The notes beneath the pieces are model-generated. The model made no database searches. It was not told the DNA's origin and worked only from the letters and a program-made list of their open reading frames with translations. The translations under genes and the position numbers were made by a program. A stretch of 63,753 nucleotides of DNA from Candidatus Nanoarchaeia archaeon (GTDB lineage Archaea > Nanobdellota > Nanobdellia > Woesearchaeales > JAQUVJ01): the NCBI GenBank assembly GCA_028693395.1, contig JAQUVJ010000002.1, forward strand, positions 1-63,753. Direction: 5' to 3'. Below, piece by piece: positions 8,270 to 25,326 of the stretch. How positions within the stretch are numbered: the first letter of the stretch is position 1; every line of letters begins with the position of its first letter.

Positions 8270-9391
8270 TTAATGATTAATAAGTGATTGACAAAATTTA
8301 TACATATAAGATAATCTATTATGATAATTACCTTTTACTATTTCCATTTTCGGATGAGCAGTAAAATCTCTAATATTGAAATTTTGATAATGTTCCAATA
8401 ATACTCCATCTAATTCATCCCGATAATCTTCATGTCTTCTTAGTCCATCACTCACCCATGGAACGCCCTCAAAAGAAAGGAAAAATCTATAATCATACAA
8501 ATCTTTATAATACGCATCATATATTGAATTAAAAAGATTCAATTCGGAGTCGGATATTTCATAAATATCATTTTCATTTTTATACAATCTATAATAGTAA
8601 TAAGTAACTACAATATCGGTATCAAAAAAACACAATCTATTGCAAGTTTTCAATGCATGGTCATTCGCTTCTATTTGCAATCTGATTATATTAAAATAAT
8701 CTTCATCGGTAATATATCTTTCATCATTTACATTTTGTTCTACATATATCCGACCCATTTCTTCGGCCCAAGATGTATGGAATATTTTAGCCAACATTTT
8801 TACCAGAGTAGTTTTTCCTGTTGATTCTGTACCAGTAATAAGAATCTTTTTTGCAAAGTGTTTTCTAGCTGACCCGCAAATATAGTCCCAATATTGCAAA
8901 GGATTTTTTCTTATTTGTGTAGCTGAAATAGGATATCTTGTCATAGAATAATCAAAATATTTAATATCGTACTCTGGAAAATAAGATTTATAAAATTCAA
9001 CATCATTCAATTCTCCAGTAAAAATAGTAAATTTAATATCCGTTGTATAAGGAGTACAATAATCATAAATAAAACTATTCAAGCATTTACTCCATTGAGG
9101 CCACCCAATGGGATATTCTGGCATATCATTAGGTTCCTTCATAATATGAATTTTTATATTATTAAAACCTTTTAATTCAGTTTTCAGCCAACGCAATCTT
9201 GTATCAGCGGAAATATATTTGATATTTGCTTCTTTACATAATCTCATATCTAACTGAATATTGTCGCAAATGATAATATTCAATTGATCACACTGAGAGT
9301 ATGCATTAAAAATATGAGTAAGATGTCCTCGATGTAAAGGAAAAAATTTTCCGACTAATATACCAACATGAAAATCATTATTGTTCATCAT
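8270..9391 (-). CDS. nadR: NadR-like bifunctional NMN adenylyltransferase / ribosylnicotinamide kinase (no HTH domain)
   Basis: GKFFPLHRGHL (HxGH), ISATQIRKNP (ISxxxxR), P-loop ITGTESTGKTTL with NadR-like context. Confidence 0.8.
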   Translation of the reverse strand: MMNNNDFHVGILVGKFFPLHRGHLTHIFNAYSQCDQLNIIICDNIQLDMRLCKEANIKYISADTRLRWLKTELKGFNNIKIHIMKEPNDMPEYPIGWPQWSKCLNSFIYDYCTPYTTDIKFTIFTGELNDVEFYKSYFPEYDIKYFDYSMTRYPISATQIRKNPLQYWDYICGSARKHFAKKILITGTESTGKTTLVKMLAKIFHTSWAEEMGRIYVEQNVNDERYITDEDYFNIIRLQIEANDHALKTCNRLCFFDTDIVVTYYYYRLYKNENDIYEISDSELNLFNSIYDAYYKDLYDYRFFLSFEGVPWVSDGLRRHEDYRDELDGVLLEHYQNFNIRDFTAHPKMEIVKGNYHNRLSYMYKFCQSLINH

Positions 9392-10250
9392 ATATTCTCC
9401 CTTTTTTTAAAATAGTCCATTCTCTTTTTTCTTTTGAATCTTCCGTCCATTTATAATAGCCATAAAAACTATTAATAAGAAAGCCAAGCCACATAAATAC
9501 AATCGGAAGTACCCAAGTAACAGAATTTCTATCATTTAATACAACCAGAATCCACATGAAAATAGTTATAATATTTGTAAGAATCCAAAATATCCATTGT
9601 TGTGAGTATGCCAACGTCATTAGAATCTGACCAATAATCTGTAATACTTCAGTAGATGAATCCAGAATTGGACCAAGTAATGTTATTCCAGTTATTGCTG
9701 TTATACTGGAATATATTGATTCATTTCTTTGCATAATATGAACAAACCAATGATCTACCATAGAAAGAAATATTCCGAATCCAATCAATGCTAGAATAGA
9801 AGTAATTGTAATAATAAATATACCTTGTTTTGTCAATTTTCTAGGCTTGATATATATTCTAGAAAATTTATCCATATGATATTTTTTCCATACAACCCAA
9901 CCAATAAATTGAAATGGCAGAAAAAAGAACCAATTTAAAATCCAATCACCATAATATCCGCTATACCAAGATATTGCTCCATACATAATAGCATTAATTA
10001 TACCCCAGTAGTAATTAGTAATATTTTCTTTTGCTACTAATACTACACATACTATTCCTGTTATAGCAGCTACGGGTGATATAATCCAATTCAATATAAC
10101 ATCAAAAAATGTATCATAAGGAGTTATATATGAAAAATAAAAAGTGGATCCCATAATAAGAGTAGTAATGAAGCCAACCAATATTTTTTCAAATACATTC
10201 CAAGAACTAAAATCCAAAGATTTTTGAATATATTGTATCATTATTTTCAT
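9378..10250 (-). CDS. pnuC: PnuC-like nicotinamide riboside transporter
   Basis: 290 aa, multiple TM helices rich in W/Y (SWYSGYYGDWILNWFFF); overlaps nadR-like gene by 14 nt. Confidence 0.7.
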   Translation of the reverse strand: MKIMIQYIQKSLDFSSWNVFEKILVGFITTLIMGSTFYFSYITPYDTFFDVILNWIISPVAAITGIVCVVLVAKENITNYYWGIINAIMYGAISWYSGYYGDWILNWFFFLPFQFIGWVVWKKYHMDKFSRIYIKPRKLTKQGIFIITITSILALIGFGIFLSMVDHWFVHIMQRNESIYSSITAITGITLLGPILDSSTEVLQIIGQILMTLAYSQQWIFWILTNIITIFMWILVVLNDRNSVTWVLPIVFMWLGFLINSFYGYYKWTEDSKEKREWTILKKGRIYDEQ

Positions 10251-10364: not shown

Positions 10365-10436
10365 AAAACTATTCACCACCCGGGCCGACAGTACGAGAAT
10401 TATCTGATTATTAAAAAACTATTCACCACCCGGGCC
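10365..10436 (+). repeat. tandem 50-bp duplication carrying two CCACCCGGGCC boxes
   Basis: AAAAACTATTCACCACCCGGGCC at 10365-10386 and 10415-10436. Confidence 0.85.
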
Positions 10437-10786
10437 AGCTTGGATTTTTATACAGAATATTCAGATAATAAATTACAATCTATTTATGAAAATGATGGCG
10501 ACGGAAAGACCAAGGTATGGATTGAAACATCGTTGGAGATAGCTCTAGAATGGCTTGTATCACATTATCCGTATCGATAAGGTAGTTCGATATGCTTCAC
10601 TGGTCAAGAACGATTCTGGGTCATTTTAGAGGTATGCGACTGAAAATTCCATAAAATCATTTCTATCATCCTTATAAAGCTCATGTCGTCGGATATAGCT
10701 CTAAAATCAACGCAGAGCTATATCCAGATGAAAGGTAATCTGATACGTCCTAATACAAGAAAATCATTCTACAAGTGTTTTAGAAT
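10437..10786. other. G+C-enriched ORF-free element bracketed by inverted CCACCCGGGCC boxes
   Basis: Boxes 10426-10436 and 10787-10797 (inverted); internal GGATATAGCTCT/AGAGCTATATCC 12-bp inverted repeat (10691-10725) plus third copy GGAGATAGCTCT (10545-10556). Confidence 0.5.
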
Positions 10787-10802
10787 GGCCCGGGTGGATA
10801 TA

Positions 10803-10842
10803 TGAAAATAAGAAGAGAGCGGCTTTTAGGGCCGCTCTCTTC
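10803..10842 (-). terminator. intrinsic terminator of cassette 1
   Basis: 12-bp stem GAAGAGAGCGGC/GCCGCTCTCTTC then T-rich run on minus strand. Confidence 0.8.
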
Positions 10843-10853
10843 ATTCATATTAG

Positions 10854-11459
10854 TTAGTTTATTGAGAAAAGAATGTCAAATCCGAATCCTTTCAACATGT
10901 CCAGAATCTTAGTGTTGGCGGGAGCATACCAAGCCTTGTTTTCAGGACTATACTTTCTTATCGGAAGAGTTTTGACATTCTGAAGAGTCTCCCTGTCAAA
11001 AGAAAACTCTATTTTCAGATAATTCATGTCATCTTTAGCTGACCGAACAAGAGATACCTTTTTGAATACTTCTTTGACAACAGTCTTTCCATCCTCAACA
11101 ACCTTTTTGGAAAAATCAATTTCAGCAAAATTCTTTATAATGCTCTTGGGTATCCACTGATCGACTTTGACGGCTTCGACCTCATCCCTGATCGTCTTGA
11201 CTTGATCTTCGGTAAGAGTTTCAAGAATGACATCCCTTGTTACCCATGAACCCAAGCATTCCGGCCCAATTCCCAGAAGTTTTGATCCTGGGTGAGTGAG
11301 TTTCCGGCCGCATCTAGCACAACGACCATCTTTGGGAATGATACCATTTCCTTTGACATAAACGGCCTTGTCAGATTCTTTCGTTATAACGCCGTTGATG
11401 TTATAAGGTACGTTCATTGCCCGTGCGATCCTCGTGCTGATAACAAAAATTTGATTCAT
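10854..11459 (-). CDS. DUF6011-motif protein with HARP-like C-terminal region
   Basis: True start ATG 11459 after AAGGGGGA SD (track start 11549 translates the leader); CARCGRKLTHPGSKLLGIGPEC; C-terminal KIEFSFDRETLQNVKTLPIRKYSPENKAWYAP. Confidence 0.6.
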   Translation of the reverse strand: MNQIFVISTRIARAMNVPYNINGVITKESDKAVYVKGNGIIPKDGRCARCGRKLTHPGSKLLGIGPECLGSWVTRDVILETLTEDQVKTIRDEVEAVKVDQWIPKSIIKNFAEIDFSKKVVEDGKTVVKEVFKKVSLVRSAKDDMNYLKIEFSFDRETLQNVKTLPIRKYSPENKAWYAPANTKILDMLKGFGFDILFSIN

Positions 11460-11520
11460 ATTAAAATCCCCCTTGGTAGATTGATGTTTGGTCGGGATTG
11501 CTCTTCCAACCAACAAGGAT

Positions 11521-11549
11521 ATTCTATCACGTATCAATCGATCCGTCAA
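11521..11549 (-). promoter_or_regulatory. cassette promoter P1
   Basis: TTGACG-17 nt-TGA-TAGAAT; member of 15-copy family. Confidence 0.75.
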
Positions 11550-11635
11550 TAGGGAAATATGATGTTTATATTTTCAGATAACTATCAACCACCCGGGCCA
11601 ACTCGGATTTTTATATAGAATATTCAGATAATAAA

Positions 11636-11785
11636 TTACTTTTTCCCAAGTACATCTTTATTGAATTTAATAGCTTTTTTAGCAAGATCATAAGCGGCGG
11701 AGGTATTTTCACCAATTTCCATAAAAAAACTATGCATTCCCACTATGAACATAAACCATAGAACATATGTAATATATTCTCGCAT
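11636..11785 (-). CDS. small membrane protein, 49 aa
   Basis: GAAAGGTGAT RBS; MREYITYVLWFMFIVGMHSFF...; below track cutoff. Confidence 0.45.
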   Translation of the reverse strand: MREYITYVLWFMFIVGMHSFFMEIGENTSAAYDLAKKAIKFNKDVLGKK

Positions 11786-11852
11786 TAGATATCACCTTTC
11801 TAATTTTCATAATATAAAGAGGGGAGTTTTCAAGACTCACCTCTATCGGATT

Positions 11853-12167
11853 TTAGACTATGAAAGTAATTCTCAGAAATTTCAGTTTGGCTCCATCAGG
11901 AAGAGTAGTGCTACCCTCGGCCAGTCTTGGACCGGAATATTGAACCACGAAAAGAGTGTCGTCCATGTCCAGTGTTACCGACTCCCTGTTGAACGTGAAT
12001 CCTTCCCAGGAAGAGGCCAGAGAATCGGCCAGTTCCTTATGACCGATAACACTCTTCGGGCTATTTTTTATAATCTCTTCAAGAGTAACAGTTTCAACAC
12101 TCATGCCGTAGTTGTTTTCCGAAATCATATTGAGAGAAAAAGCGTTGGAAACGAGAGTCTTTGCCAT
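11853..12167 (-). CDS. DUF1874 / AcrIII-1-like viral ring nuclease (candidate anti-type III CRISPR)
   Basis: True start ATG 12167 after AAGGAGGA SD; MAKTLVSNAFSLNM..., VIGHKE (catalytic His context), VVQYSGPRLAEG match STIV B116 / SIRV1 gp29 family. Confidence 0.8.
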   Translation of the reverse strand: MAKTLVSNAFSLNMISENNYGMSVETVTLEEIIKNSPKSVIGHKELADSLASSWEGFTFNRESVTLDMDDTLFVVQYSGPRLAEGSTTLPDGAKLKFLRITFIV

Positions 12168-12237
12168 TGTGAAATCCTCCTTAGAAATTGTATTTTGTCG
12201 GTCGGGTCGCCTGTTCGCTCTTCCAACCAACAAGGAT

Positions 12238-12266
12238 ATTCTATCACGTATCAATCAATCCGTCAA
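12238..12266 (-). promoter_or_regulatory. cassette promoter P2
   Basis: TTGACG-17 nt-TGA-TAGAAT. Confidence 0.75.
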
Positions 12267-12482
12267 GCATTAAAATCGATTTTTTTGATGATTAAATTTT
12301 CAAACAACTCAACATCCTTTCAATTATATAGTCTGCATATCGGTGAAAAAATATTTTATAGATAATTCTGAATAATCTAACCATCGCCGCCCCGGGCCAA
12401 CTCGGATTTTTTTGCAGAATATTCGTATAGATTGAAAGCAATAAAAAAGACAACTCCTTTTAAGAGTTGTCTTTATATTCTA

Positions 12483-12647
12483 TTATATTTCAGTCAATTT
12501 CAGAATATGATCTTCCGGGTTCTCGTTCGGTGCAGTATATTTCAACCATTCAAAAAAGTCTATATCATCGCCGTCGATAATTCCGGTAATAACTTCGTCC
12601 ATATAAAGATCCAGAAAGGGGCCAAACTTTATTATAATCGTTGTCAT
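12483..12647 (-). CDS. acidic mini-protein, 54 aa
   Basis: AAGGGGGA SD; MTTIIIKFGPFLDLYMDEVITGIIDGDDIDFFEWLKYTAPNENPEDHILKLTEI; terminator AAGACAACTC/GAGTTGTCTT follows. Confidence 0.6.
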   Translation of the reverse strand: MTTIIIKFGPFLDLYMDEVITGIIDGDDIDFFEWLKYTAPNENPEDHILKLTEI

Positions 12648-12708
12648 TTAAAAATCCCCCTTAGATATTAGATGTTTGGTCGGGATCGCTCTTCCAACCA
12701 ACAAGGAT

Positions 12709-12737
12709 ATTCTATCACGTATCAATCAATCCGTCAA
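12709..12737 (-). promoter_or_regulatory. cassette promoter P3
   Basis: TTGACG-17 nt-TGA-TAGAAT. Confidence 0.75.
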
Positions 12738-12830
12738 GCATTAAAATCGATTTTTTCTATGATTAAATAGTTAGATAATAGCTAAAATCGTTATTGAAGT
12801 AACCTCGGAAAAAACCTATTTTAGAACACA

Positions 12831-13020
12831 ACCACGTAAAGTCTTGCAAACACTGGATTCTTAGATTTCTTGTGAATAAGATAACATATTTATAAAGCCT
12901 TGCAAACACTAGCTTTTTTATACACGATCACTAATCTCCTATGTGTCGCAACGAAAAATGGATAAATGGTATAAAGCTACACTTGCAATCTAAAACCGCG
13001 ACAGGATTGAAATTAGGAAT
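12831..13020 (+). ncRNA. hairpin element copy a (candidate structured RNA)
   Basis: Two CGTAAAGYCTTGCAAACACTRG motifs then GATCACTAATCTCC...GCGACAGG...AATTAGG hairpin; paralog of 15542-15780 and 17815-18055. Confidence 0.4.
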
Positions 13021-13192
13021 TGTATATATTATTATAAACAATGCGGCCAGGGTGGATAAAATTGTATATGCTTTTAAAACAATTATGATTATATGAAAAT
13101 GATTATAATTGATATATATTCTAAAAAAACGATTATCAACCACCCGGGCCAGCTTGGATTTTTTCACAGAATATTCATACAAATTGAAGATA

Positions 13193-13240
13193 ATAAAAAA
13201 AAGACTGTTTATTTTTCTCGAAATAAACAGTCTGAAAAAA
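13193..13240. terminator. bidirectional intrinsic terminator
   Basis: AGACTGTTTAT/ATAAACAGTCT 11-bp stem between A8 and A-run. Confidence 0.75.
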
Positions 13241-13243
13241 CTA

Positions 13244-13417
13244 TTAAATTGCATATGTCATTTTTTCGGAAATAAGATAACTTGTATTAATACCTGGATA
13301 ATAAAATTCCATCCATTCCAAAAAACTAAAAATAGTCTCATTATCTTCTACTTCTTGAAGCCAATCATGATAATAATAACTATCTTCAAGAATCTGATAT
13401 GAAGAAGAGCTAGGCAT
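13244..13417 (-). CDS. acidic aromatic-rich mini-protein, 57 aa
   Basis: GGGGGG SD overlapping end of upstream ORF; MPSSSSYQILEDSYYYHDWLQEVEDNETIFSFLEWMEFYYPG... Confidence 0.55.
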   Translation of the reverse strand: MPSSSSYQILEDSYYYHDWLQEVEDNETIFSFLEWMEFYYPGINTSYLISEKMTYAI

Positions 13418-13418
13418 A

Positions 13419-13727
13419 TTAAAAACCCCCCTTATAAAGATTAGTCAGATTATTTTCTACAATTCTCTTGAAACGTCTGGCGAGATTACGATTCGCCATA
13501 TAACGACGTTTCACGGGATTGACAGACTTCTCCAATTTTTCTCTCTTTTTGCCCGTCCAATCCTCAGGGCGAACAAACTCACGACGGACCTGATGATTAG
13601 TGAGTTTCTTGTAATAAGAATTGTCAGAAATATCGTCAGTATTCCGAACAATTTTTTTTGTATCAGCTTTCACTTCGATGCCCATTCCGTCCGTAAAAAT
13701 ATAGCTCTTTCGATAAGTATTTGCCAT
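13419..13727 (-). CDS. basic hypothetical protein, 102 aa
   Basis: AAGGAGGG SD, first gene of P4 cassette. Confidence 0.7.
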   Translation of the reverse strand: MANTYRKSYIFTDGMGIEVKADTKKIVRNTDDISDNSYYKKLTNHQVRREFVRPEDWTGKKREKLEKSVNPVKRRYMANRNLARRFKRIVENNLTNLYKGGF

Positions 13728-13799
13728 ATTAAAAACCCTCCTTGAAAGATAGATGTTTGGTCGGGAACGCTTGACTTCGCTCTTCCAACCAACAAGGAT

Positions 13800-13828
13800 A
13801 TTCTACCATGCTTTATCGAATCCGTCAA
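13800..13828 (-). promoter_or_regulatory. cassette promoter P4
   Basis: TTGACG-17 nt-TGG-TAGAAT. Confidence 0.75.
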
Positions 13829-13910
13829 TAGGGAAATATGATGATTAAATTTTCAGATAATTTATATTCTGGATATTATATTCTGTATTCTGTATTCTGT
13901 ATACACAAAC

Positions 13911-14123
13911 GCGGAATAAATAAATTTTTCTTTTTAGGAGTATTGTGCGGAAAATATAAATTTTTATTAGATGGAATATTGTGCGGAAAATAAATTTTTA
14001 TTAGATGGATATTATGCAAAATAAATGAATTTTTATTAGATGGATAATTTATGCGAAATAAATGAATTTTTATTAGATGGGTATTTATGCGAAAAATATA
14101 AATTTTCGTGTTAGAGGTATGAT
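13911..14123 (+). repeat. six tandem 33-37-bp iteron-like repeats
   Basis: GCGRAAAATAAATGAATTTTTATTAGATGGATAWTTAT units head to tail, no spacers. Confidence 0.85.
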
Positions 14124-14139
14124 TAAAAAGATTCTAATC

Positions 14140-14194
14140 TTTTGCGTAACGTAGTGAAGCAAAAGAGTTTTTGCGTAACGCAGTGAAGCAAAAA
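14140..14194 (+). repeat. two tandem hairpin repeats
   Basis: TTTTGCGTAACGYAGTGAAGCAAAA twice (TTTTGC/GCAAAA stems). Confidence 0.8.
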
Positions 14195-14217
14195 CCTGAT
14201 CGGCTAAAATATTTTTG

Positions 14218-14354
14218 GTCGGCGCAATATATTTTCCTCCAAACTCTTTTTTAACGACTTATATTTTTTCAAACTATTTATAATTATTCAAACTATTTAT
14301 AATTTTTAAAGGCTAAGTACTTTTAACTTTATCATCTTTTTCTATTTTTACTAA
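14218..14354 (+). repeat. long direct repeat, copy 1
   Basis: GTCGGCGCAATATATTTTCCTCCAAACTCTTTTTTAACGACTTATATTTTTT... about 90 percent identical to 14580-14696. Confidence 0.85.
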
Positions 14355-14431
14355 TTCGTCAATTCGTAATATAGTTCTTAGGAATCATCTTTTTCGGTTA
14401 AAAGATGAGTCTTAGGAATCATCTTTTAGAC

Positions 14432-14461
14432 TTGACAAACTATACTATAGTATGATATAAT
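14432..14461 (+). promoter_or_regulatory. near-consensus sigma70 promoter with no downstream ORF
   Basis: TTGACA (14432-14437)-18 nt-TGA-TATAAT (14456-14461), points into ORF-free repeat DNA. Confidence 0.6.
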
Positions 14462-14579
14462 AATTAAAAAAAAACTTTTATTTTAGGAATATTTTTAGAA
14501 ATGCATTCAGAAGGTATGATATGAAATTTTTATAATCGTTCTCAAAATATAAAAATTGCGTCGACCAAAAATTTATCCA

Positions 14580-14696
14580 GTCGGCGCAATATATTTTCCT
14601 CCAAACTCTTTTTTAACGACTTATATTTTTTAAACTATTTATAAAATTTTAAAGGCAAGTACTTTTAACTTTATCATCTTTTTCTATTTTCACTAA
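14580..14696 (+). repeat. long direct repeat, copy 2
   Basis: Paralog of 14218-14354; followed by AATTCCTAAGA/TCTTAGGAATT 11-bp hairpin. Confidence 0.85.
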
Positions 14697-14773
14697 ATTA
14701 TACATAATTCCTAAGATTCATTTTTATATGAGTCTTAGGAATTATTTTATGAACAAAAATATTTCAGAAAATT

Positions 14774-14932
14774 TTAGCTATTATCAATCATATCTTGAGT
14801 ATAAAATGTCTTGCTAGTTTCATAATCACATTCCATACAAAATACTTTGACTGTTATGGAATTTTCTTCAGGATTAGCACAATAATCAAAATCTGTTTCT
14901 TTTCCGCATACAGGACAAAAAACACTATTCAC
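14774..14932 (-). CDS. zinc-ribbon mini-protein, 52 aa
   Basis: GAAAGGAG RBS, GTG start; CPVC...CMEC. Confidence 0.5.
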   Translation of the reverse strand: MNSVFCPVCGKETDFDYCANPEENSITVKVFCMECDYETSKTFYTQDMIDNS

Positions 14933-14956
14933 TACACAACACTCCTTTCAAAATAT

Positions 14957-14988
14957 AAAGAGGGAATTTTTTAGATAATTCCCTCTTT
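14957..14988 (-). terminator. intrinsic terminator
   Basis: AAAGAGGGAATT/AATTCCCTCTTT 12-bp stem. Confidence 0.7.
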
Positions 14989-14999
14989 CATATAAATTT

Positions 15000-15368
15000 C
15001 TATTCCTTGTTCAGTTCAATAGAATTGTAAGTATTATTTATGTCATTCAGATATCGAAGAATATTTGTTGCTTCTTTTGTATTCTTCTTTGTATTAGCAT
15101 CCAAAATAACTATTGGTATCATAATATCATTCTGAGCAACAATTCCCATGTCCCAGAGAGTATAAAGAGTAGTCAATTCCGAACCGTAATTCATTGACCA
15201 CAAAACCCCTTCTATTTCCGAAAAATGAAATACGACTGGTGAGTTCTTGTTGTCCAAAACAAATCTTTCAAACTTCTTGTTAATTTTGCAATCCAAATCC
15301 GTTTTAATGTCACCCTTTTTAATCATACTAGCTAAAGTACCGATGTTTAGAACCTTCGTCTTCATCAT
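15000..15368 (-). CDS. hypothetical protein, 122 aa
   Basis: AAGGGGGA SD 9 nt before ATG; P5 cassette. Confidence 0.7.
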   Translation of the reverse strand: MMKTKVLNIGTLASMIKKGDIKTDLDCKINKKFERFVLDNKNSPVVFHFSEIEGVLWSMNYGSELTTLYTLWDMGIVAQNDIMIPIVILDANTKKNTKEATNILRYLNDINNTYNSIELNKE

Positions 15369-15435
15369 CTGTGAAAATCCCCCTTATAAAGATATTTTGT
15401 CAGTCGGATCGTTTACTCTTCCCTCCGACTGCTAT

Positions 15436-15464
15436 ATATTATCACGGTTTTTTCAATCCGTCAA
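15436..15464 (-). promoter_or_regulatory. cassette promoter P5 (variant)
   Basis: TTGACG-17 nt-TGA-TAATAT; leader hairpin CAGTCGGA/TCCGACTG. Confidence 0.7.
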
Positions 15465-15541
15465 GTAGTATTTTTCATGATTAAATATTCTGATAAATAA
15501 AAACGTCGTATTGACCAAGGAAAATCGTTAATTTTTCAATG

Positions 15542-15780
15542 ACCACGTAAAGCCTTGCAAATACTGGGTTTTTATATTTCTTGTGAATGAAATATCAAAC
15601 TCGTAAACTGTTGCTACGACTACATTTTTTCTATACGATCACTAATCTCTTCTGTATCGGTCTGTTTTTCCATAAAACAGTATAACTGCACACGTCTAAA
15701 ATTTTCATTGCGACACAGAGGAGATTAGTAATGTTTAGACCGCTCTAACATTTATAAACTGTTGATATTACTGGATTTTT
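15542..15780 (+). ncRNA. hairpin element copy b (candidate structured RNA)
   Basis: 15-bp stem ACTAATCTCTTCTGT (15641-15655) / ACAGAGGAGATTAGT (15715-15729) with one U-G pair valid only on plus-strand RNA; flanked by three TTGCAA-type 22-mers. Confidence 0.45.
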
Positions 15781-15875
15781 CAAGTCGATAAATTCTAAAA
15801 AACATCATGCTAAAAAATCTCATTGACCCCCTGGCCTTCCCGAAGAATGCAGAATATTCCGTCATGTAGAATATA

Positions 15876-15912
15876 ATAAAAAAGACGGCTCTTTTATGGG
15901 AGTCGTCTTTAT
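15876..15912 (-). terminator. intrinsic terminator
   Basis: AAGACGGCTC/GAGTCGTCTT stem with flanking A/T runs. Confidence 0.65.
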
Positions 15913-15920
15913 ATTTTTAA

Positions 15921-16325
15921 TTAAAGAGTAATTTCAGCCATTTCGGGAATTTCAACCCTTACCTTCCTCGGTCTGCCTCTAGGTCTCTTTTCAGCCACCG
16001 GAGCATTCGGATCCACAGGCTTCCTCGGTCTACCTCTAGGTCTCTTCTCAGCCACAGGTGCATTCGGATCAATCATCTTCTTTGGTCTCCCCCTTCCTCT
16101 CTTTTCTACTACAAGAAACCCGCTATCAACCAATGTATTGACAAAATCAATTACATTCGGCATATTCAGAGTTGTAGCAATATTCTCAACAACTACCCCC
16201 TCGTCCTTTGGAACACTGAAAAATACCGCCTTGAAATTCTCGTCCTTATTAAAACGAGCATTTTGAATAAGATTGAAAGTATTCGCCTTATTTCCTCTCT
16301 TCACTACTGCCTTTACGTTCATCAT
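15921..16325 (-). CDS. AT-hook repeat DNA-binding protein
   Basis: Start ATG 16325 after AAGGAGG; three RGRP AT-hook cores (KRGRGRPKK, KRPRGRPRK twice) in tandem PVAEKRPRGRPRKxVDPNA repeats. Confidence 0.7.
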   Translation of the reverse strand: MMNVKAVVKRGNKANTFNLIQNARFNKDENFKAVFFSVPKDEGVVVENIATTLNMPNVIDFVNTLVDSGFLVVEKRGRGRPKKMIDPNAPVAEKRPRGRPRKPVDPNAPVAEKRPRGRPRKVRVEIPEMAEITL

Positions 16326-16400
16326 CACCATTACCTCCTTGAATTTTAATTTCTTTTCAATTTCTTTATGATTATATCTTATCATAAAGAAATTCGTTTG

Positions 16401-16718
16401 TCAAGCTCTTTTTTCAAACTTTTTAATCAATCCATCCAAAAAGCTATTTTCTCTAACTATTTTGGAGATTGCTGTTTCAATATGAGAATCCAACAATCCC
16501 TCCGCATAAATATCGTTGTAAAATTCTCTTTCCGATGTTACCTGATAATATTTGTTTACGGCCCAGAAAATATCCCAAGTGATTCTTTTTCTGAAATTCT
16601 GAAAATCCTTGGAATTAAAAACTTTTTCAATATGAGCCGCTGTTTCTGATGGATGTTTTCCTACAAAATCATTGATCTCATTTTTAATCTTCTCATAAAG
16701 TGTCTTGCTCATTTTCAT
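16401..16718 (-). CDS. hypothetical protein, 105 aa
   Basis: GAGGGGGA SD; first gene of P6 cassette. Confidence 0.7.
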   Translation of the reverse strand: MKMSKTLYEKIKNEINDFVGKHPSETAAHIEKVFNSKDFQNFRKRITWDIFWAVNKYYQVTSEREFYNDIYAEGLLDSHIETAISKIVRENSFLDGLIKKFEKRA

Positions 16719-16770
16719 TCAGAAATCCCCCTCTATTTTGTTTTCAAGTGTCTTCCGAACCAACAAGGAT

Positions 16771-16799
16771 ATTCTACCATGCTTCAATCAATCCGTCAA
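16771..16799 (-). promoter_or_regulatory. cassette promoter P6
   Basis: TTGACG-17 nt-TGG-TAGAAT. Confidence 0.75.
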
Positions 16800-16904
16800 T
16801 AGGTTATTTTCGATTTTCTTGTAGATTAAATTTTCAAACAACTTCCCACCACCCGGGCCAGACGTACAAAAATTTTTTCAATATTCAAATTATCAGAATA
16901 TAAG

Positions 16905-16941
16905 AAAAAAGCGACTCCCTTAAAAGAGTCGCTTTTTTTTC
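16905..16941. terminator. intrinsic terminator
   Basis: AGCGACTC/GAGTCGCT stem between A6 and T8. Confidence 0.75.
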
Positions 16942-16944
16942 TAT

Positions 16945-17298
16945 TTAAAATTCTCTTCTCAAATAATAAGTGCAACCAAAACCTTCACCCAATGTTTCAT
17001 CATCATTATAAGGATACAGAATACCTCTTACTTCCGTTATTCTTGCCGTAACTGTCCCCCAACAGGTTACATTCTGAGTTTTTTTACTATTCAATTTTCG
17101 AGAAGTGATTTTATACTGAAAAGCTGGATAGATGATATTTTTTGCGTTGTATCTAATTTCAAATTTAGTTCCAACAAAAGCTTGATCAACAAATACATTC
17201 GATTCTGTATTCCACTCATCACCCTTTACAGAATCGATCATCCAAACTTCCCCGGCGAACTCAACGATGGGTTTTTTGCTCATATCGATTTTTTTCAT
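16945..17298 (-). CDS. hypothetical protein, 117 aa
   Basis: True start ATG 17298 after AAGGGGGA SD; track start 17373 translates the conserved leader. Confidence 0.7.
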   Translation of the reverse strand: MKKIDMSKKPIVEFAGEVWMIDSVKGDEWNTESNVFVDQAFVGTKFEIRYNAKNIIYPAFQYKITSRKLNSKKTQNVTCWGTVTARITEVRGILYPYNDDETLGEGFGCTYYLRREF

Positions 17299-17363
17299 TA
17301 TAAAATCCCCCTTGAAAATAGATGTTTTGGTCGGGATCGCTCTCTCTCTCAACCAACAAGGAT

Positions 17364-17392
17364 ATTCTACCATAAAAAAATCAATACGTCAA
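17364..17392 (-). promoter_or_regulatory. cassette promoter P7
   Basis: TTGACG-17 nt-TGG-TAGAAT. Confidence 0.75.
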
Positions 17393-17449
17393 TAAGAAAA
17401 TATGATGTTTATATTTTCAAATAACTCCCCACCATAATAAACAGTACAA

Positions 17450-17737
17450 AAATTATCAAACTATTCAAAATAAAAATAATATATTAAAAAAACAAGTTAA
17501 TTGAAAAAACCCAAAATTTTTGAATACGTTAATTATACCTAAAATAGAAAAAACTATGAAAGTTAATTTAAAAAAACCTTTTTTTTTTGGTAAATTGTCA
17601 GATAATTTAGATTAGTCGGAAGATATTATTAAAAACAAAATTTTATCAATTATTTCATTATTTCATTAATTCATCATAAAAATATAAATTCTATAAAGAT
17701 TCAGATTATAGGATATATATTTTTTTGTCTTTAAATT
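17450..17737 (+). repeat. long dispersed direct repeat, copy 1
   Basis: Blocks AAACTATTCAAAATAAAAATAATATATTAAAAAAACAAGTTAATTGAAAAAACCC and TTCTATAAAGATTCAGATTATAGGATATATATTTTTTTGTCTTTAAATTC recur at 18810-19003. Confidence 0.8.
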
Positions 17738-17814
17738 CGGATAACTATCTCGTTCATTATACCATTTCAGATTTCAAAATTTCCCCTAGAAAAACCTATT
17801 TCATAATCTAATCT

Positions 17815-18055
17815 CGTAAAGCCTTGCAAACACTAGCTTTCTCAACTTCTCATTTTAAAAAATCCAACCTTGTAAAACCTTGCTATCACTAGCTTTTTTG
17901 ACCACGATCACTAATCTCTTCTGTACGGGGTTTTTAATACACATATCCATACAATCTTGCGTCTTCATTTCTAAAAACGCGACACAGAGCAAAATAGTAA
18001 TCGTAAGCCTTGTCTAACATTTATAAAACCTTGCAATTACTAGGTTTTTTATTTT
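17815..18055 (+). ncRNA. hairpin element copy c (candidate structured RNA)
   Basis: Same layout as copies a and b; arms 17910-17924 / 17984-17998 (12 of 15 pairs) plus inner CGGGGTTTTTA/TAAAAACGCG pairing. Confidence 0.4.
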
Positions 18056-18375
18056 TGATATTCCAGAAAAAAGATATATAAAAACTTTTACACCCGGGCC
18101 AAACGTACAAAAATTTTTTTAATATTCAGACTATCAAAATATAATAAAAAATGACCCTTTAAATTTTTCTTCTGAAAGAGCAGGGTCAGACTCTTCCAGC
18201 AACACTCATTTTTATAAATACTATGAATACCAAAATGAGAAAATATTCATAGCTTGAAACGATTCTTAAAAATTAAAATATTTAGATAATTGGAAATGCA
18301 GAATCAACATCTCCAATTACCTGTCTTTTTATAATACCTCATAAACAATAAAAGACAAAATGTTTACGGGATAAA

Positions 18376-18422
18376 TTAAAAAATTTTAATACGAGTAGAA
18401 AGGAGGATAACTACTCGTATTA
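18376..18422 (-). terminator. terminator downstream of tRNA-Leu
   Basis: 12-bp stem TAATACGAGTAG/CTACTCGTATTA then T-run on minus strand; second 13-bp hairpin at 18428-18461. Confidence 0.7.
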
Positions 18423-18547
18423 AAAGTGAAATGATTATTATTTCGAGCTAATAATCATTTCAATGGAACAAGAAATACCGTTGCGTTGTGCTTGTATCGC
18501 CGCATGGGGTCGGCAAAATTAAACTTTCTGATATTAAATTTTTTAAA

Positions 18548-18634
18548 TGGTGCGAGAGGGGGGACTCGAACCCCCAATCCCCTCCGGGCGAAGCATTTTA
18601 AGTGCTTTGCGTATCCCAATTCCGCCACTCTCGC
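18548..18634 (-). tRNA. tRNA-Leu (anticodon UAA), class II, CCA encoded
   Basis: Acceptor GCGAGAG/CTCTCGC, U8, D-arm GCGGAATTGGGATACGC, anticodon stem AAGCA/TGCTT with loop CTTAAAA, long variable arm, T-arm GGGGG-TTCGAGT-CCCCC, A-CCA end. Confidence 0.9.
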
Positions 18635-18681
18635 ACTTTTCTCTTTATTCACTTGTCAAGGTCGTTTCGCTCAACATGTAT

Positions 18682-18710
18682 ATAATACCATAGGATCAAT
18701 AAGATGTCAA
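18682..18710 (-). promoter_or_regulatory. promoter for tRNA-Leu
   Basis: TTGACA-17 nt-TGG-TATTAT, about 40 nt upstream of the tRNA 5' end. Confidence 0.65.
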
Positions 18711-18809
18711 TAACTAAAATCAATGTTTAAATTATCAAAAAACTTACTTACCCTTCAAACCATCCCGAAGAATGCAGAATATTCCGTCAACCACCCAGGC
18801 CATCGCCCA

Positions 18810-19003
18810 GAAATTATTAAACTATTCAAAATAAAAATAATATATTAAAAAACAAGTTAATTGAAAAAACCCTAAATTTCTTGAAAAATTGAATTGAATG
18901 GAAAATGACATAAAAATATAAATTGAAACAAAAAATATAAAATTTCATATTTATTCTATAAAGATTCAGATTATAGGATATATATTTTTTTGTCTTTAAA
19001 TTC
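18810..19003 (+). repeat. long dispersed direct repeat, copy 2
   Basis: Paralog of 17450-17737; bracketed by boxes at 18791-18801 and 19011-19021. Confidence 0.8.
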
Positions 19004-19055
19004 CCCTCATCCACCCGGGCCAACTAAATATAAATTTCAGATAATTTTCTATATA

Positions 19056-19099: not shown

Positions 19100-19945
19100 T
19101 TAAACTATTTCATAATCCCATTTTTCCCAGTTATTTATATTGTACAATTTCCCTTTCCAATTAAACTTTATTTTATTATCCATATCAACTACAACAAATG
19201 TATCAGCTTTCTCTCCTGCAATCGTTACATAACCATTCAATATTCTAATTCTTTCACCATGATTCAATTTTCTCTTTTTTGTATTTTGTTTCATGGAAGT
19301 ACTGGAATATCCAGTCGTTTCAACCTTTTTTCTCCAATTATATGAACGCTCTTTTTCCTCATATGAATAATTATCAGCCAAATCCAAATTATCCAACTTA
19401 TTAAACATTTCCATCGGCATTCGTATTAAATGTTCAAATGTCAACGTATCCATATAATCAGAATACTCAGGAATCAAAGTAATATCAGCATTATGAATAG
19501 TTTTTTTAATTTTCATTTTCATCGCTGCTGCAACACGATTTCCCATAACATCCAAATACAAGATATAACCTTCACGACCACCCTTATGAATAAATATATC
19601 AATTATAATATTTTTTCCAAACAAATCCATTATAGCCTCTTTCAATGTCTTTCCCCTATAACTAACATTAAAACGAGAATTCAACCTATCATAAAACGTT
19701 TCAATAATTACTTCCCTTTTCTCTTCTCTCTTGGTACTAGTAGCTTTTTCATATCCCCTATAGCTACCAGGCATATATCCAGATACCAAATACTTTTTCA
19801 TTATACCATACTCTTCATTGAGCATCTTCATCATCTCGTCATTCCCACCACGATCAGGATGATGTATTCTTACTAATCTCCTATACTCATTCTTCAATAC
19901 AGAATCATCTTTGATCACAGAAGTATTAAAAAACTGCATCATCAT
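19100..19945 (-). CDS. J-domain (DnaJ-like) protein, 281 aa
   Basis: N-terminal YRRLVRIHHPDRGGNDEMMKMLNEEY with HPD tripeptide; rest unrecognised. Confidence 0.75.
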   Translation of the reverse strand: MMMQFFNTSVIKDDSVLKNEYRRLVRIHHPDRGGNDEMMKMLNEEYGIMKKYLVSGYMPGSYRGYEKATSTKREEKREVIIETFYDRLNSRFNVSYRGKTLKEAIMDLFGKNIIIDIFIHKGGREGYILYLDVMGNRVAAAMKMKIKKTIHNADITLIPEYSDYMDTLTFEHLIRMPMEMFNKLDNLDLADNYSYEEKERSYNWRKKVETTGYSSTSMKQNTKKRKLNHGERIRILNGYVTIAGEKADTFVVVDMDNKIKFNWKGKLYNINNWEKWDYEIV

Positions 19946-20207: not shown

Positions 20208-20236
20208 ATTCTATCATATTAAAATCAATCCGTCAA
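20208..20236 (-). promoter_or_regulatory. cassette promoter P8
   Basis: TTGACG-17 nt-TGA-TAGAAT; leader truncated (no hairpin). Confidence 0.75.
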
Positions 20237-20272
20237 TAAGAAAATATGATGTTTATATTTTCAGATAACTTA

Positions 20273-20479
20273 AAAATGAACTTTTCCCTGATAGGTACTT
20301 AAAACTTTTTCCATTTGATTACTTTTCCCTGATAGGTACTTAAAACTTTTTCCAGCTTATAAACTATTCAAAATATCCAAAATTAAAGAAACCATTGCAA
20401 TTACCAGCTTTATCAAAATTTTACAACCCTTCTGAAAATAAAATGAACTTTTCCCTGATAGGTACTTATAAACTTTTTT
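20273..20479. repeat. three copies of a 33-40-nt CRISPR-repeat-like unit
   Basis: ACTTTTCCCTGATAGGTACTTAAAACTTTTTCC at 20280-20312, 20321-20353, 20447-20478; gaps 8 nt and about 93 nt. Confidence 0.8.
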
Positions 20480-20497
20480 AAAAATTTATAAATTCTT

Positions 20498-20629
20498 TGC
20501 AACAGTGTTGCATTTTAATATAAATTCTTTGCAACAGTGTTGCATTTTAATATAAATTTATATTAAAAAATAATATAAAACTCATAGACCGTTGCAAACA
20601 CTATATAAAAGTTTTGCAACAGTGTTGCA
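20498..20629. promoter_or_regulatory. three palindromic operator-like sites
   Basis: TGCAACAGTGTTGCA at 20498-20512, 20530-20544, 20615-20629. Confidence 0.6.
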
Positions 20630-20724
20630 TTAAAAGTCGGTGTGTATACAGAATACTTTACACAAAATTATCCACAAAAATATATTACACTATATGTAGC
20701 ATTAAAAAAAATATATTACACTAA

Positions 20725-21000
20725 TCCTTAGAGCATTATAGAGCTTAGAGCATCGTATAGAGCTATCCTTAGAGCATCGTATAGAGCTATCCTTAGAGCT
20801 TAGAGCTATCCTTAGAGCATCGTATAGAGCATTATAGAGCTTAGAGCATCGTATAGAGCATTATAGAGCTTAGAGCTATCCTTAGAGCATTGTATAGAGC
20901 TTAGAGCTATCCTTAGAGCATTGTATAGAGCTATCCTTAGAGTTATTTTTAGAGTATTGTATAAGGACGTATAGAGTATTGTATAGAGTATAAGATATAG
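20725..21000 (+). repeat. mosaic minisatellite built on TAGAGC
   Basis: 20 exact TAGAGC in about 215 bp, spaced 7/10/12 bp in units TTAGAGC, ATTATAGAGC, ATCGTATAGAGC, TATCCTTAGAGC; decays to TAGAG toward 21000. Confidence 0.9.
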
Positions 21001-21220
21001 AATTATTTAAAGAATTAGGTATATGTATTAAATTGTATGGATATTGATTATTGCTGTATTTGTTTAATTTATGGGAAATATTTGTTTTATATGGGAATTA
21101 GGTATATGTATTAAATTGTGTGGGGAGTTTTGTATACAATATAACCGTTGGAAACACTGATAAAATGCTGATAAAATGAAAATGGAATTTATTTTGAAAA
21201 AGTTTTTGTTTATATGAAAA

Positions 21221-21245
21221 AGAGCGGGTTTTGGGGACCCGCTCT
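21221..21245. terminator. intrinsic terminator (family copy 1 of 3)
   Basis: AGAGCGGGT/ACCCGCTCT stem, A5/T5 flanks; same hairpin at 22727-22751 and 25994-26018. Confidence 0.8.
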
Positions 21246-21291
21246 TTTTCTATCGTATATTATTTAGATTTAGATTTCAAAATTCTCTCCT

Positions 21292-21465
21292 TTATATTGA
21301 TGAACTGATTTCTTGTTTTACTTTTTCGTTAGAGTAGAACTGGCTCTTTATTTCTATATGATTGCAATTTTTATTCATACATATTTTTTTGTATGTAAAC
21401 TTATCTACTTTCTCCAGAATGGAATAGTCCATATTACTTTGACATGATGGGCATCTAAAAATCAT
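21292..21465 (-). CDS. zinc-ribbon mini-protein, 57 aa
   Basis: AAGGAGGAG RBS; MIFRCPSCQSN...CMNKNC; distal gene of hicA-like cassette. Confidence 0.55.
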   Translation of the reverse strand: MIFRCPSCQSNMDYSILEKVDKFTYKKICMNKNCNHIEIKSQFYSNEKVKQEISSSI

Positions 21466-21556
21466 TATTCTATCTCCTCCTTATATGTAAAACGATAAAA
21501 TCTATAAACTCTTCCAATGACATTTCCTGTATTTGTTTCTTAGTCATAATCATATC

Positions 21557-21778
21557 TTATTTATAGACCGCTTCAAACTCCTTCATATTAATTCCATTTT
21601 CTTTGAGAATCCGGCGAAGAAGTGTAGTCTTTACTTCGCCGCTTCTGGGAAATACAACCATTTTTGATGGATCGTATGTTTTTTTCATTTTTTGATGTCC
21701 GGTCCCTCCATTGTCGACATATCCGAGTTTTTCAAAAGCTTTTTTTACTCTGTCGCCGCGATAATCAAAACGTGCCAT
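21557..21778 (-). CDS. hicA: HicA-like mRNA interferase toxin, copy 1 (no HicB seen)
   Basis: 73 aa; KLGY..NGGTGHQKM...VVFPRSGEVKTTLLRRILKENGI fits HicA pattern (G.GSxH...P.H...l...l+.Ilkq.Gi). Confidence 0.7.
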   Translation of the reverse strand: MARFDYRGDRVKKAFEKLGYVDNGGTGHQKMKKTYDPSKMVVFPRSGEVKTTLLRRILKENGINMKEFEAVYK

Positions 21779-21833
21779 CTATATTACCCCCTCAAGATTT
21801 TATGTGTTGGTCGTTCTATCAACCAACAAGGAT

Positions 21834-21862
21834 AGTATATCACACTCTCGTCAATCCGTCAA
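21834..21862 (-). promoter_or_regulatory. cassette promoter P9
   Basis: TTGACG-17 nt-TGA-TATACT. Confidence 0.75.
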
Positions 21863-21967
21863 GAGCTTTTCTAAAGAATTTATTTTCAAAAAACTTTTCT
21901 TGTTTATACACTCATCATCATCAATTATATAGACTGTATATCGGTGAAAAAAAGTTATTTAATTATT

Positions 21968-22007
21968 GAAAAAGGGATGAATTTATTAAAAACTCATCCC
22001 TTTTTTT
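21968..22007. terminator. intrinsic terminator
   Basis: AAAGGGATGA/TCATCCCTTT stem then T7. Confidence 0.75.
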
Positions 22008-22013
22008 GATTAT

Positions 22014-22604
22014 TTATTCCATATAAACACTACCATCTTCGTAAAATTCAAACCCATTTTTATCCAAATATTTTATCAAATAAGAATCTGATGATTTATC
22101 TTTATATTTTTCTTTTAGAATGTCACCTACTACTAAAGTATAATAATGAAACAGTGAAAGAACTGCATTGACGAATTCATTTACATCATTTTCTATTGTA
22201 TATATATCTGCTTCTTCAAGAAGAATTTTAAAATTTCCAAGAGTTTCATACAACATAAAACTTCTTGAAGTGATAATAATATCAAAATCTTTAAATGCTC
22301 CTTCATAAAAATACCTTTTCATTTTATCTTTAATTCTAGCATGATCATTTGAAAGAATTTTCATTGCATCGGAAGCTTTAATTCTTCCATTAAAAGAGCA
22401 ATATGAAAGACTTTTTTTGTCCATAGTAAAAAATACATCTGCAATATGAACAACACTAGGAATATATGTAAGGGCGTGTTTTATATCCTCATTATCCAAT
22501 TCAATAGAATCAACACCGTATTTTTTAAATGTTTCAATCGCATAATTCTTTGCTTCGTCGGAAAGTTCATTGATGGTATACAGATCTAAAGTGATAGTTC
22601 TCAT
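22014..22604 (-). CDS. hypothetical protein, 196 aa
   Basis: GAGGAGG SD; P10 cassette; N-terminal LYTINELSDEAKNYAIE and C-terminal FEFYEDGSVY recall plasmid/phage accessory proteins, family not identified. Confidence 0.7.
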   Translation of the reverse strand: MRTITLDLYTINELSDEAKNYAIETFKKYGVDSIELDNEDIKHALTYIPSVVHIADVFFTMDKKSLSYCSFNGRIKASDAMKILSNDHARIKDKMKRYFYEGAFKDFDIIITSRSFMLYETLGNFKILLEEADIYTIENDVNEFVNAVLSLFHYYTLVVGDILKEKYKDKSSDSYLIKYLDKNGFEFYEDGSVYME

Positions 22605-22659
22605 TGTATTACCTCCTCAAAATTTTTATATGCTGGCCGTTTTATCAACCAACAAGGAT

Positions 22660-22688
22660 AGTATATCACACTCTCGTCAATCCGTCAA
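22660..22688 (-). promoter_or_regulatory. cassette promoter P10
   Basis: TTGACG-17 nt-TGA-TATACT. Confidence 0.75.
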
Positions 22689-22726
22689 GAACTTTTTTAA
22701 AGAATTTATTTTCAGATAATAAAAAA

Positions 22727-22751
22727 AGAGCGGGTTTTGGGGACCTGCTCT
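22727..22751. terminator. intrinsic terminator (family copy 2)
   Basis: AGAGCGGGT/ACCTGCTCT stem with A7/T5 flanks. Confidence 0.75.
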
Positions 22752-22827
22752 TTTTCACTATTCTTTTACAAAATCTTCAACAATTTCACAATTAATTTGT
22801 TTAAATTGATTAAAATGTACCATAAAT

Positions 22828-23289: not shown

Positions 23290-23295
23290 TCCTTT

Positions 23296-23541: not shown

Positions 23542-23555
23542 AATTTTAGTCCTCC

Positions 23556-23870: not shown

Positions 23871-23895
23871 TTCTTCATCTCCTCTCAATGCAAGT

Positions 23896-24388: not shown

Positions 24389-24390
24389 TT

Positions 24391-24702: not shown

Positions 24703-24709
24703 AATTTTA

Positions 24710-25300: not shown

Positions 25301-25326
25301 AAAAACACCTCTTTATTTTAAAATAG

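Follow-up and report, generated by a model that had tools for sequence, protein, structure and literature searches.

What does a short GC-rich motif do when it recurs, almost invariant, between the small genes of an otherwise AT-rich genome? This question is raised by a 63,753-nt stretch of DNA (hereafter, the window; positions 1 to 63,753 of contig JAQUVJ010000002.1, assembly GCA_028693395.1, Candidatus Nanoarchaeia archaeon), which is part of a large, lytic, AT-rich, uncultured phage and in which the 11-mer CCACCCGGGCC (hereafter, the box) is repeated in an array of small genes at 10.3–19 kb. Early arrays of orphan genes (ORFans) are where large phages hold host-takeover and anti-defence genes and, to our knowledge, only in T4-type phages have the gain and loss of such genes been worked out in detail, by way of the promoter-early stem-loop (PeSL) regulatory cassettes. 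Comparisons within the window and with related metagenome contigs demonstrate, at the level of sequence, a modular architecture of the array, selective conservation of the box, its retention at orthologous positions, and transfer, insertion or deletion of cassettes at promoter and Shine-Dalgarno motifs. On balance, we favour the view that the region is a PeSL-like cassette array in which the box is a double-stranded DNA motif under selection and one of several identity islands where crossovers occur.

The confinement of the box to the array is clear-cut. All counts given here refer to the window, 63.7 kb of a 73-kb source contig. The box, or variants with up to 3 mismatches, is present in 12 copies, plus one remnant, all between positions 10376 and 19021 (Table 1), where zero copies are expected by chance. 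Ten copies have at most 1 mismatch (10376, 10426, 10787 on the minus strand, 11589, 13045 on the minus strand, 13140, 16849, 18090, 18791 and 19011), 7 of them being perfect, and no match of this quality was obtained in 100 dinucleotide-preserving shuffles of the window. All 9 CCCGGG sites of the window lie within 10379–19014; the only box-like 11-mer with up to 2 mismatches outside the array is an unrelated match at 53522; and the box is the sole GC-rich 9-mer that occurs at least 3 times in the window, where the mean G+C content is ~25% (30–44% in the array). Both the clustering reported in the initial annotation of this DNA and the absence of the motif elsewhere in the window are thus real. 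The positions listed there are correct to within one base, with the amendments that the copy placed at 12387 starts at 12388 and carries 2 mismatches, that the copies placed at 18091 and near 15827 start at 18090 and 15826, and that a further remnant, with the flank kept and CCCGGGCC replaced, lies at ~17423.

Ten of the 12 copies share one orientation, the transcribed strand of the box reading GGCCCGGGTGG. Such a bias could mark a strand-specific DNA-processing signal, be it Chi-like, a T5-like nicking site, or a terminal-repeat or packaging element of the SPO1/Twort-like kind; the clustering of the copies within 8.7 kb of the early region, an extent typical of a long terminal repeat, the iteron-like 36-nt tandem array nearby (13911–14106), and a loose likeness to the 12-bp inverted repeats TAAGTACCTGGG that bound Twort-like terminal repeats (PMC7596081) would fit as well. 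We consider this role of the box highly improbable, given that 12 copies within 8.7 kb, all in terminator-promoter spacers, are unlike the known pattern of any such signal and that relatives with a transferred cassette (see below) carry one copy amid other genes.

All genes of the array are encoded on the minus strand, in cassettes. Followed along the transcript, each cassette opens with an AT-rich upstream element (starting TTATCTGAAAAT) and a sigma-70-type promoter (TTGACGGATTGA...-17-TAGAAT), continues with a conserved, hairpin-forming leader (GAATATCCTTGTTGGTTGG...), a G-rich Shine-Dalgarno sequence and 1 or 2 small open reading frames (ORFs), and closes with an intrinsic terminator. Between 11549 and 27037, there are ~16 promoters of the form TTGACG(G/T)ATTGA...-17-TAGAAT/TATACT, including, beyond the example in Table 1, copies with the −35 element at 12266, 12737, 13828, 15464, 16799, 17392 and 20236; the last of these and the copies at 21862, 22688, 23924, 25956, 26335, 26770 and 27037, that is, the 8 same-class promoters at 20236–27037, are without a box. 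A terminator scan yielded 13 terminator-like sites against 4.6 expected, and terminators lie at cassette ends, 45–120 nt upstream of the next promoter. The genes themselves are ORFans with a G+C content of 35–44%, compared with ~25%, without an informative Pfam or PHROG match and with few, scattered homologues; the product of 10854–11459 is a DUF6011 zinc-ribbon protein. The box occupies the spacer that separates a terminator from the following promoter, 44–51 nt past the terminator in 5 copies and 4–7 nt before the promoter unit wherever such a unit follows. Its previously described position 40–120 nt upstream of −35 elements holds for 6 copies (39, 49, 66, 80, 116 and 121 nt); the others precede non-promoter elements.

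These regularities are what one would expect if the box were purely a transcription-control site (operator, activator or roadblock) for the adjacent early promoter or terminator, with recombination being incidental. Indeed, all copies are intergenic, most are co-oriented with transcription (10 of 12), the distance to the terminator is fairly constant in the 5 copies mentioned, intact copies (11589, 16849 and the copy in contig L289) are 4–7 nt away from the TTRTYTGAAAAT with which promoter units start, and copies before non-promoter elements tend to be decayed (15826, 18090 and 13045). Nevertheless, we regard this explanation as unlikely: the distance to the −35 element varies from 39 to 121 nt, the box is missing at most promoters of the same class, two copies are inverted, and no regulator was found. 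The activator site that the initial annotation put forward as its alternative is weakened by the same spacing and by the 8 box-less promoters, on which grounds we rejected a class I/II activator site or UP-type element.

Conservation of the box exceeds that of its surroundings. In an alignment of 11 plus-oriented copies from the window (the 17423 remnant included) and one copy from a relative, the majority fraction is 0.89 for the box, the best conserved stretch of 11 columns, vs 0.59–0.66 for the flanks, with an AATATTC stretch coming second; the positions that never vary are CCCNGGCC. The right flanks, of types A, B and C, align as diverged forms of one ~70-nt module that consists of the terminator A-run, a TATAAT-like stretch, (G/C/T)AATATTC, ~18 nt and the box. 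Conservation of the box above its flanks among paralogous copies points to selection on the motif itself. By comparison, the 8-bp palindrome previously said to follow the box is less regular: GAATATTC is found exactly, after the box, in four type-A copies and at 15826, but precedes the box at 18791 and is replaced by CAATATTC or TAATATTC in the type-B copies.

No conserved hairpin including the box was detected on either strand of the 12 copies, the palindromic part being CCCGGG only; the idea of an RNA or single-stranded DNA hairpin was dropped for want of a consistent fold, and the box matched no Rfam family. One subset does offer a structure, in that the type-A box and its spacer together form a weak plus-strand hairpin, CCGGGCCAACTCGG, which precedes a T-run and thus resembles a small terminator. 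The type-A box could then be the 5′ half of a small antisense intrinsic terminator that shields the cassettes from convergent transcripts. The terminator scan flagged CCGGGCCAACTCGG or CCGGGCCAGCTTGG with the T-run at 10430, 11593, 12392 and 13144, the differences among 5 copies are confined to the loop or change G-C to G-U pairs, which fits pairing in plus-strand RNA only, and the array contains a consensus plus-strand promoter (14432–14461). However, with a stem of 5 pairs, a conserved CCACC part that falls outside this stem, no such hairpin in the type-B, type-C, 19011 and L215 copies, and plus-strand transcription that is itself a prediction, we hold this scenario to be very unlikely.

Exact-pattern scans of IMG/VR and of JGI/ENA metagenome contigs with the box plus flank, or with the conserved leader, gave chance single matches only; neither IMG/VR nor GTDB genomes yielded a relative in locus searches seeded with two array proteins, of 201 and 281 aa; and loci seeded with the PARP-like protein lacked the box but, at 40–48% identity, are too distant. 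Relatives were obtained by proceeding from members of clusters at ≥90% identity to the contigs that encode them, and by two homology searches. In these metagenome contigs, the box is retained at orthologous positions. In L215, a gene whose product is 66% identical to that of 19100–19945 is followed by a near-identical terminator, a spacer that is ~75% identical with two indels, and TTGGCCCGGGTGG, identical in 13 of 13 positions to the window at box 19011; the homology thus spans gene, terminator and spacer, and breaks off at the box. Past the box, L215 resembles a short type-B spacer that probably leads to a second box, but the contig ends there. The box after a 117-aa gene is present in at least 13 contigs as GGCCCGGGTGG or GGCCCGGGTAG; the L268-type relatives have 134 nt of intergenic sequence in common with the window, and the single substitution in it, GGCCCGGGTGG to GGCCCGGGTAG in 8 of 10 loci, is inside the box. 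Near-identical strains (98–100%) have the same arrangement as the window, although in one strain, 98% identical over the region, the 15826 box has a further 1-base deletion. Relatives of the pnuC-nadR segment (77–82% nucleotide identity) have no array and no box upstream of pnuC. Conservation above the flanks, together with retention in a diverged relative, argues for a function of the box of its own on double-stranded DNA; it is probably a protein-binding site, most simply a boundary or regulatory element.

Separately, we observed that several contigs (L213, L215, L281 and L291) tend to end in or near the conserved leader or the box spacer, consistent with repeats breaking assemblies, such that arrays of this type would be under-represented in metagenome contigs.

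The relatives also reveal how the cassettes move. The 17318–16771 segment (Table 1) is 95–96.5% identical in at least 13 contigs from sewage or wastewater (L268–L277, L282, L284 and L285), in which the neighbouring genes are ~70% identical or unrelated and are syntenic with the 32–43 kb part of the window, not with the array. The homologous segment is delimited exactly by the last base of TAGAAT at one end and, at the other, by a point ~10 nt before the Shine-Dalgarno sequence, and the box lies within the transferred piece; these phages have other promoter types and a single box in up to 10.8 kb. L289 carries a whole extra cassette upstream of a 102-aa gene (promoter, leader, a 146-aa AT-hook gene, terminator, type-A spacer and box), and comparison with the window places the insertion or deletion crossover in the −35 hexamer, TTGACGGATT. 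In L284, 92 nt are inserted between AAT and ATT within the type-B spacer, 24 nt from the box, and in L278 the common part is limited to the Shine-Dalgarno sequence and ORF of the 102-aa gene. Altogether, 4–5 of the resolved breakpoints between genomes are at the −35 or −10 element, the Shine-Dalgarno/start region or the AAT-ATT step, and one is at a box edge. Since most are off the box, the box appears to be one identity island among several rather than the junction.

Some further rearrangements were seen in the same contigs. The terminator hairpin after the 117-aa gene (16905–16945 in the window) is an exact reverse complement in L268–L277 and L282–L285 (GCGACTCTTTTAAGGGAGTCGC vs GCGACTCCCTTAAAAGAGTCGC); its flanks being collinear and identical on both sides, the hairpin has been flipped in place. 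The 146-aa AT-hook gene of L289 is paralogous to gene 15921–16331, in a different cassette position. At ~2200–2900 of L269 (also in L271 and L272), a high-GC stretch with a 116-aa ORF, inside an AT-rich phage contig, looks like a recently acquired foreign insert.

Within the window, the picture is different, in that homology between box copies is mostly one-sided and ends at the box edge. Copies 16849 and 18090 have 51 nt in common on the right and 0 on the left, where box 18090 is flanked by element D3, unrelated to the left flank of 16849; copies 10376 and 10426 have 12 nt in common on the left and 0 on the right; and copies 11589 and 16849 share the promoter side only. Moreover, pairs of boxes bracket the 350-nt element (an inverted pair), the 84-nt AT-rich insert and the long repeat, as the initial annotation had it for 10437–10786, 13056–13139 and 18810–19003; a first copy of the long repeat lies at ~17447–17738. 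That annotation read the box as a recombination junction, and a dedicated target of site-specific recombination or of a nuclease (attC-like, shufflon-like or homing), possibly with the enzyme encoded outside the window, would account for these sharp edges and bracketed segments, for the end of the L215 homology at the box and for the 7 perfect copies. We nonetheless find it quite unlikely. The box has neither a hairpin nor the second inverted arm that attC or recombinase core sites would need; domains of tyrosine or serine recombinases, HNH and GIY-YIG were not found among the ~55 window ORFs scanned; there are no target-site duplications, direct repeats of at least 9 nt flanking 2 of 13 boxes, about the chance level; and in relatives the resolved breakpoints are at the other motifs listed above, and a transferred cassette comes with one box only. 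Thus, the one-sided homology and the L215 endpoint stand, whereas the mechanisms proposed for them fail, and the expectation that insert boundaries in relatives would coincide with boxes is largely contradicted.

For the same reasons, several specific candidates were rejected: an attC-like site (no hairpin, no integrase, and cassettes with their own promoters); a homing-endonuclease target (no HNH, GIY-YIG or LAGLIDADG nuclease in or near the array); and a miniature inverted-repeat transposable element, in which the 350-nt element would have the boxes as 11-bp inverted repeats, since that element has no flanking duplication. Nor does the element match any Rfam family; it contains a promoter-like site on the plus strand at 10522–10551. 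In a bolder version, the box would be the site of a phage enzyme or DNA-binding protein that captures, excises or inverts promoter-bearing cassettes, an integron-like process acting on double-stranded DNA without attC hairpins. We give this version little credence; were it true, the reassorting flanks, the box-bracketed inserts and the box breakpoint of L215 would be its footprints.

Returning to the PeSL-like cassette array, the events could be envisaged as follows. The 10.3–19 kb region would be a hyperplastic early-gene region of autonomous minus-strand cassettes that are gained, lost and moved among phage lineages through homologous or microhomology recombination, with crossovers at short identity islands common to the cassettes, namely, the −35 and −10 elements, the Shine-Dalgarno region and, less often, the box. 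The box would be the invariant core (CCCNGGCC) of an optional ~70-nt spacer module between a terminator and the next unit, and would probably serve as the recognition site, on double-stranded DNA, of a phage or host protein, for instance to mark a boundary, to insulate or to regulate the adjacent unit. The part of the box as a crossover point would be a by-product of its conservation.

Several observations weigh against this scenario. No box-binding protein was found, and a box is nearby in only 3–4 of the ~16 promoters of the same class. Several copies have decayed (15826 and 17423), and, in solitary boxes at least, position 10 is free to vary to some degree, as their G-to-A polymorphism indicates that constraint is less than absolute. 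Homology that ends sharply, and on one side only, at the box edges is compatible with a site-specific process as well. Furthermore, PeSLs have been described in T4-type phages, whereas the window has a UvsX-like recombinase and no structural core genes, and mini-circles are the functional hallmark of PeSLs, the likeness here being one of sequence organization.

A few other functions of the box were examined and discarded: an alternative sigma-70 promoter on either strand or a MotA-box-like substitute of the −35 element (by inspection, no −10 element at a consistent distance); a Shine-Dalgarno mimic (no ORF after it); and the target of the phage methyltransferase, which is of the Dam type and adenine-specific (PF02086). 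A cloning or assembly artefact was dismissed because the same arrangement is found in independent Logan, ENA, JGI and NCBI assemblies.

Table 1. Copies of the box and associated features of the array (window coordinates).
Feature	Position	Strand	Remark
Box CCACCCGGGCC, perfect	10376..10386	+	66 nt upstream of the −35 element of the pnuC promoter
pnuC promoter	10309-10281	-	
Box, perfect, type-A flank	10426..10436	+	inverted pair with 10787 around the 350-nt element
350-nt non-coding element, ~39% GC	10437..10786		between inverted boxes
Box, perfect, inverted	10787..10797	-	14 nt from terminator 10812-10842
Early promoter, example: TTGACG-17-TAGAAT, leader GAATATCCTTGTTGGTTGG	11521..11549	-	
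Box, perfect, type-A flank	11589..11599	+	39 nt upstream of the −35 element of promoter 11549-11521(-)
Type-A post-terminator spacer	11600..11639	+	copies 10437-10476, 11600-11639, 12399-12445, 13151-13201
Box variant CGCCCCGGGCC, 2 mismatches, type-A flank	12388..12398	+	47 nt from terminator 12446-12474
Box variant CCACCCTGGCC, inverted	13045..13055	-	adjoins hairpin/repeat element D1
84-nt AT-rich insert (85 nt in the initial annotation)	13056..13139		flanking boxes face outward
Box, perfect, type-A flank	13140..13150	+	51 nt from terminator 13202-13233
Decayed box ACCCCCTGGCC, type-C flank	15826..15836	+	
Exchanged 548-nt cassette	16771..17318	-	Shine-Dalgarno, 117-aa ORF, terminator, type-B spacer, box, upstream region, promoter to −10
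Box, perfect, type-B flank	16849..16859	+	49 nt upstream of the −35 element of promoter 16799-16771(-)
Box remnant CCCCACCAtaataaacagtac	17423..17446	+	type-B flank retained, CCCGGGCC core replaced
Box variant ACACCCGGGCC, type-B flank	18090..18100	+	flank 90% identical to the 16849 flank
Box variant CCACCCAGGCC	18791..18801	+	left end of long repeat copy 2
AT-rich long repeat, copy 2	18810..19003		between boxes 18791 and 19011
Box, perfect	19011..19021	+	

The array also contains repeats that are distinct from the box. A composite non-coding element is present in three copies (12831–13044, 15542–15825 and 17811–18089), each of which ends at a box and contains 2–3 GTAAAGCCTTGCAAACACTAG-like motifs, a long hairpin (CACTAATCTC...GAGATTAGTAATG) and a conserved, plus-strand, promoter-like TTGC(A/T)A-17-(C/T)ACGAT arrangement; the copies have no Rfam match and may represent a small RNA of the plus strand. 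In the non-coding region 13850–14770, a 36-nt tandem repeat of 5.5 copies (13911–14106; consensus ...AAATTTTTATTAGATGGATATTTATGCGAAA...) lies within ~0.9 kb devoid of genes, where direct repeats also occur at 14206–14354 and 14568–14696; its copy number varies in L289 and L290, and the region looks like iterons or an origin. The plus-strand promoter at 14432–14461, which matches the consensus perfectly (TTGACA-18-TATAAT, with an upstream TG), is antisense to the array genes. A 57-nt tandem repeat (15963–16103) in gene 15921–16331 encodes AT-hook repeats (KRPRGRPRK). The minus-strand tRNA-Leu(TAA) gene (18548–18634) has its own near-consensus promoter (18710–18682) and is followed by ~350 nt of hairpin-rich non-coding DNA (18200–18547) closing in a terminator-like hairpin.

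The gene content of the window beyond the array includes a UvsX-like recombinase, RNA ligases, an ATP-dependent DNA ligase, a PARP-like protein and NAD-salvage genes, as well as ArdA, a Tad3-like protein and a Dam-type methyltransferase. NAD-related and anti-defence genes are dense at 8270–10250, 25369–25923, 29658–30845 and 54020–58631, comprising PnuC, a NadR-like kinase, an isochorismatase-family protein, PRPP synthetase, NAMPT and NAD synthase, together with the Tad3-like Thoeris inhibitor, ArdA and a WGR-PARP protein. By UvsX, the nearest cultured relatives are Bacillus and Staphylococcus phages at ~30% identity, so that the kinship to Herelleviridae-type phages is no more than distant; no close cultured relative was found, and a megablast search of the array against cultured phages gave no match.

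How, then, does this array relate to known systems of gene turnover? The integron offers an obvious parallel, with its array of small cassettes, a short conserved motif near each junction and varied genomic contexts. However, our array has no attC hairpin, no integrase among the window ORFs and no attI/Pc; each cassette has a promoter and a terminator of its own, whereas integron cassettes mostly have no promoters; and its breakpoints are at promoter and Shine-Dalgarno motifs. Elements of the REP/BIME, Correia and BOX/RUP types are likewise short repeats located after terminators, sometimes in inverted pairs, but the box is not a palindromic hairpin and belongs to a phage setting, and neither terminal inverted repeats with target duplication nor a cognate transposase were found. 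SPO1 and the Twort-like phages are large phages of Gram-positive hosts, and the host-takeover module of the former and the terminal repeats of the latter resemble the array in their short early genes, strong host-type promoters and extent of ~8–13 kb. The Twort-like terminal repeats are, in addition, bounded by short GC-containing repeats, CCTGGG/CCCAGG (12-bp inverted) (PMC7596081). Unlike the box, which occupies spacers, these boundary repeats occur once per end, and the sequences are not homologous; the likeness is a resemblance only.

The closest match is with the PeSLs of T4-type phages, in which repeated promoter-terminator units surround ORFans, and exchanges have their endpoints within these regulatory repeats (Arbiol et al. 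2010, PMC2839356; Comeau et al. 2014, PMC4122927). In common with PeSLs, the array repeats a unit in which a strong sigma-70-type early promoter is combined with an AT-rich upstream region and with a stem-loop terminator, in a hyperplastic region among small ORFans; its insertion, deletion and replacement endpoints are in repeated motifs (−10, Shine-Dalgarno, −35 and one box edge); and the phage encodes a recombinase of its own, here UvsX-like. It departs from PeSLs in that the stem-loop is separate from the promoter, not interleaved with it, in the long conserved leader, in the optional ~70-nt spacer with a GC-rich 11-mer that is neither promoter nor stem-loop, and in belonging to a different, uncultured phage lineage. 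What we describe is, in essence, PeSL-like cassette shuffling in a new phage lineage, with a GC-rich spacer motif added. The modular logic of PeSL early regions thereby recurs in an unrelated, uncultured lineage of sewage phages, in which one cassette has been caught in transfer between lineages, with breakpoints resolved to the −10 hexamer and the Shine-Dalgarno region. If the box binds a protein, it would point to a factor, new to phage early regions, that sets boundaries or regulates, and the box would be of practical use as a marker for finding such arrays in metagenomes.

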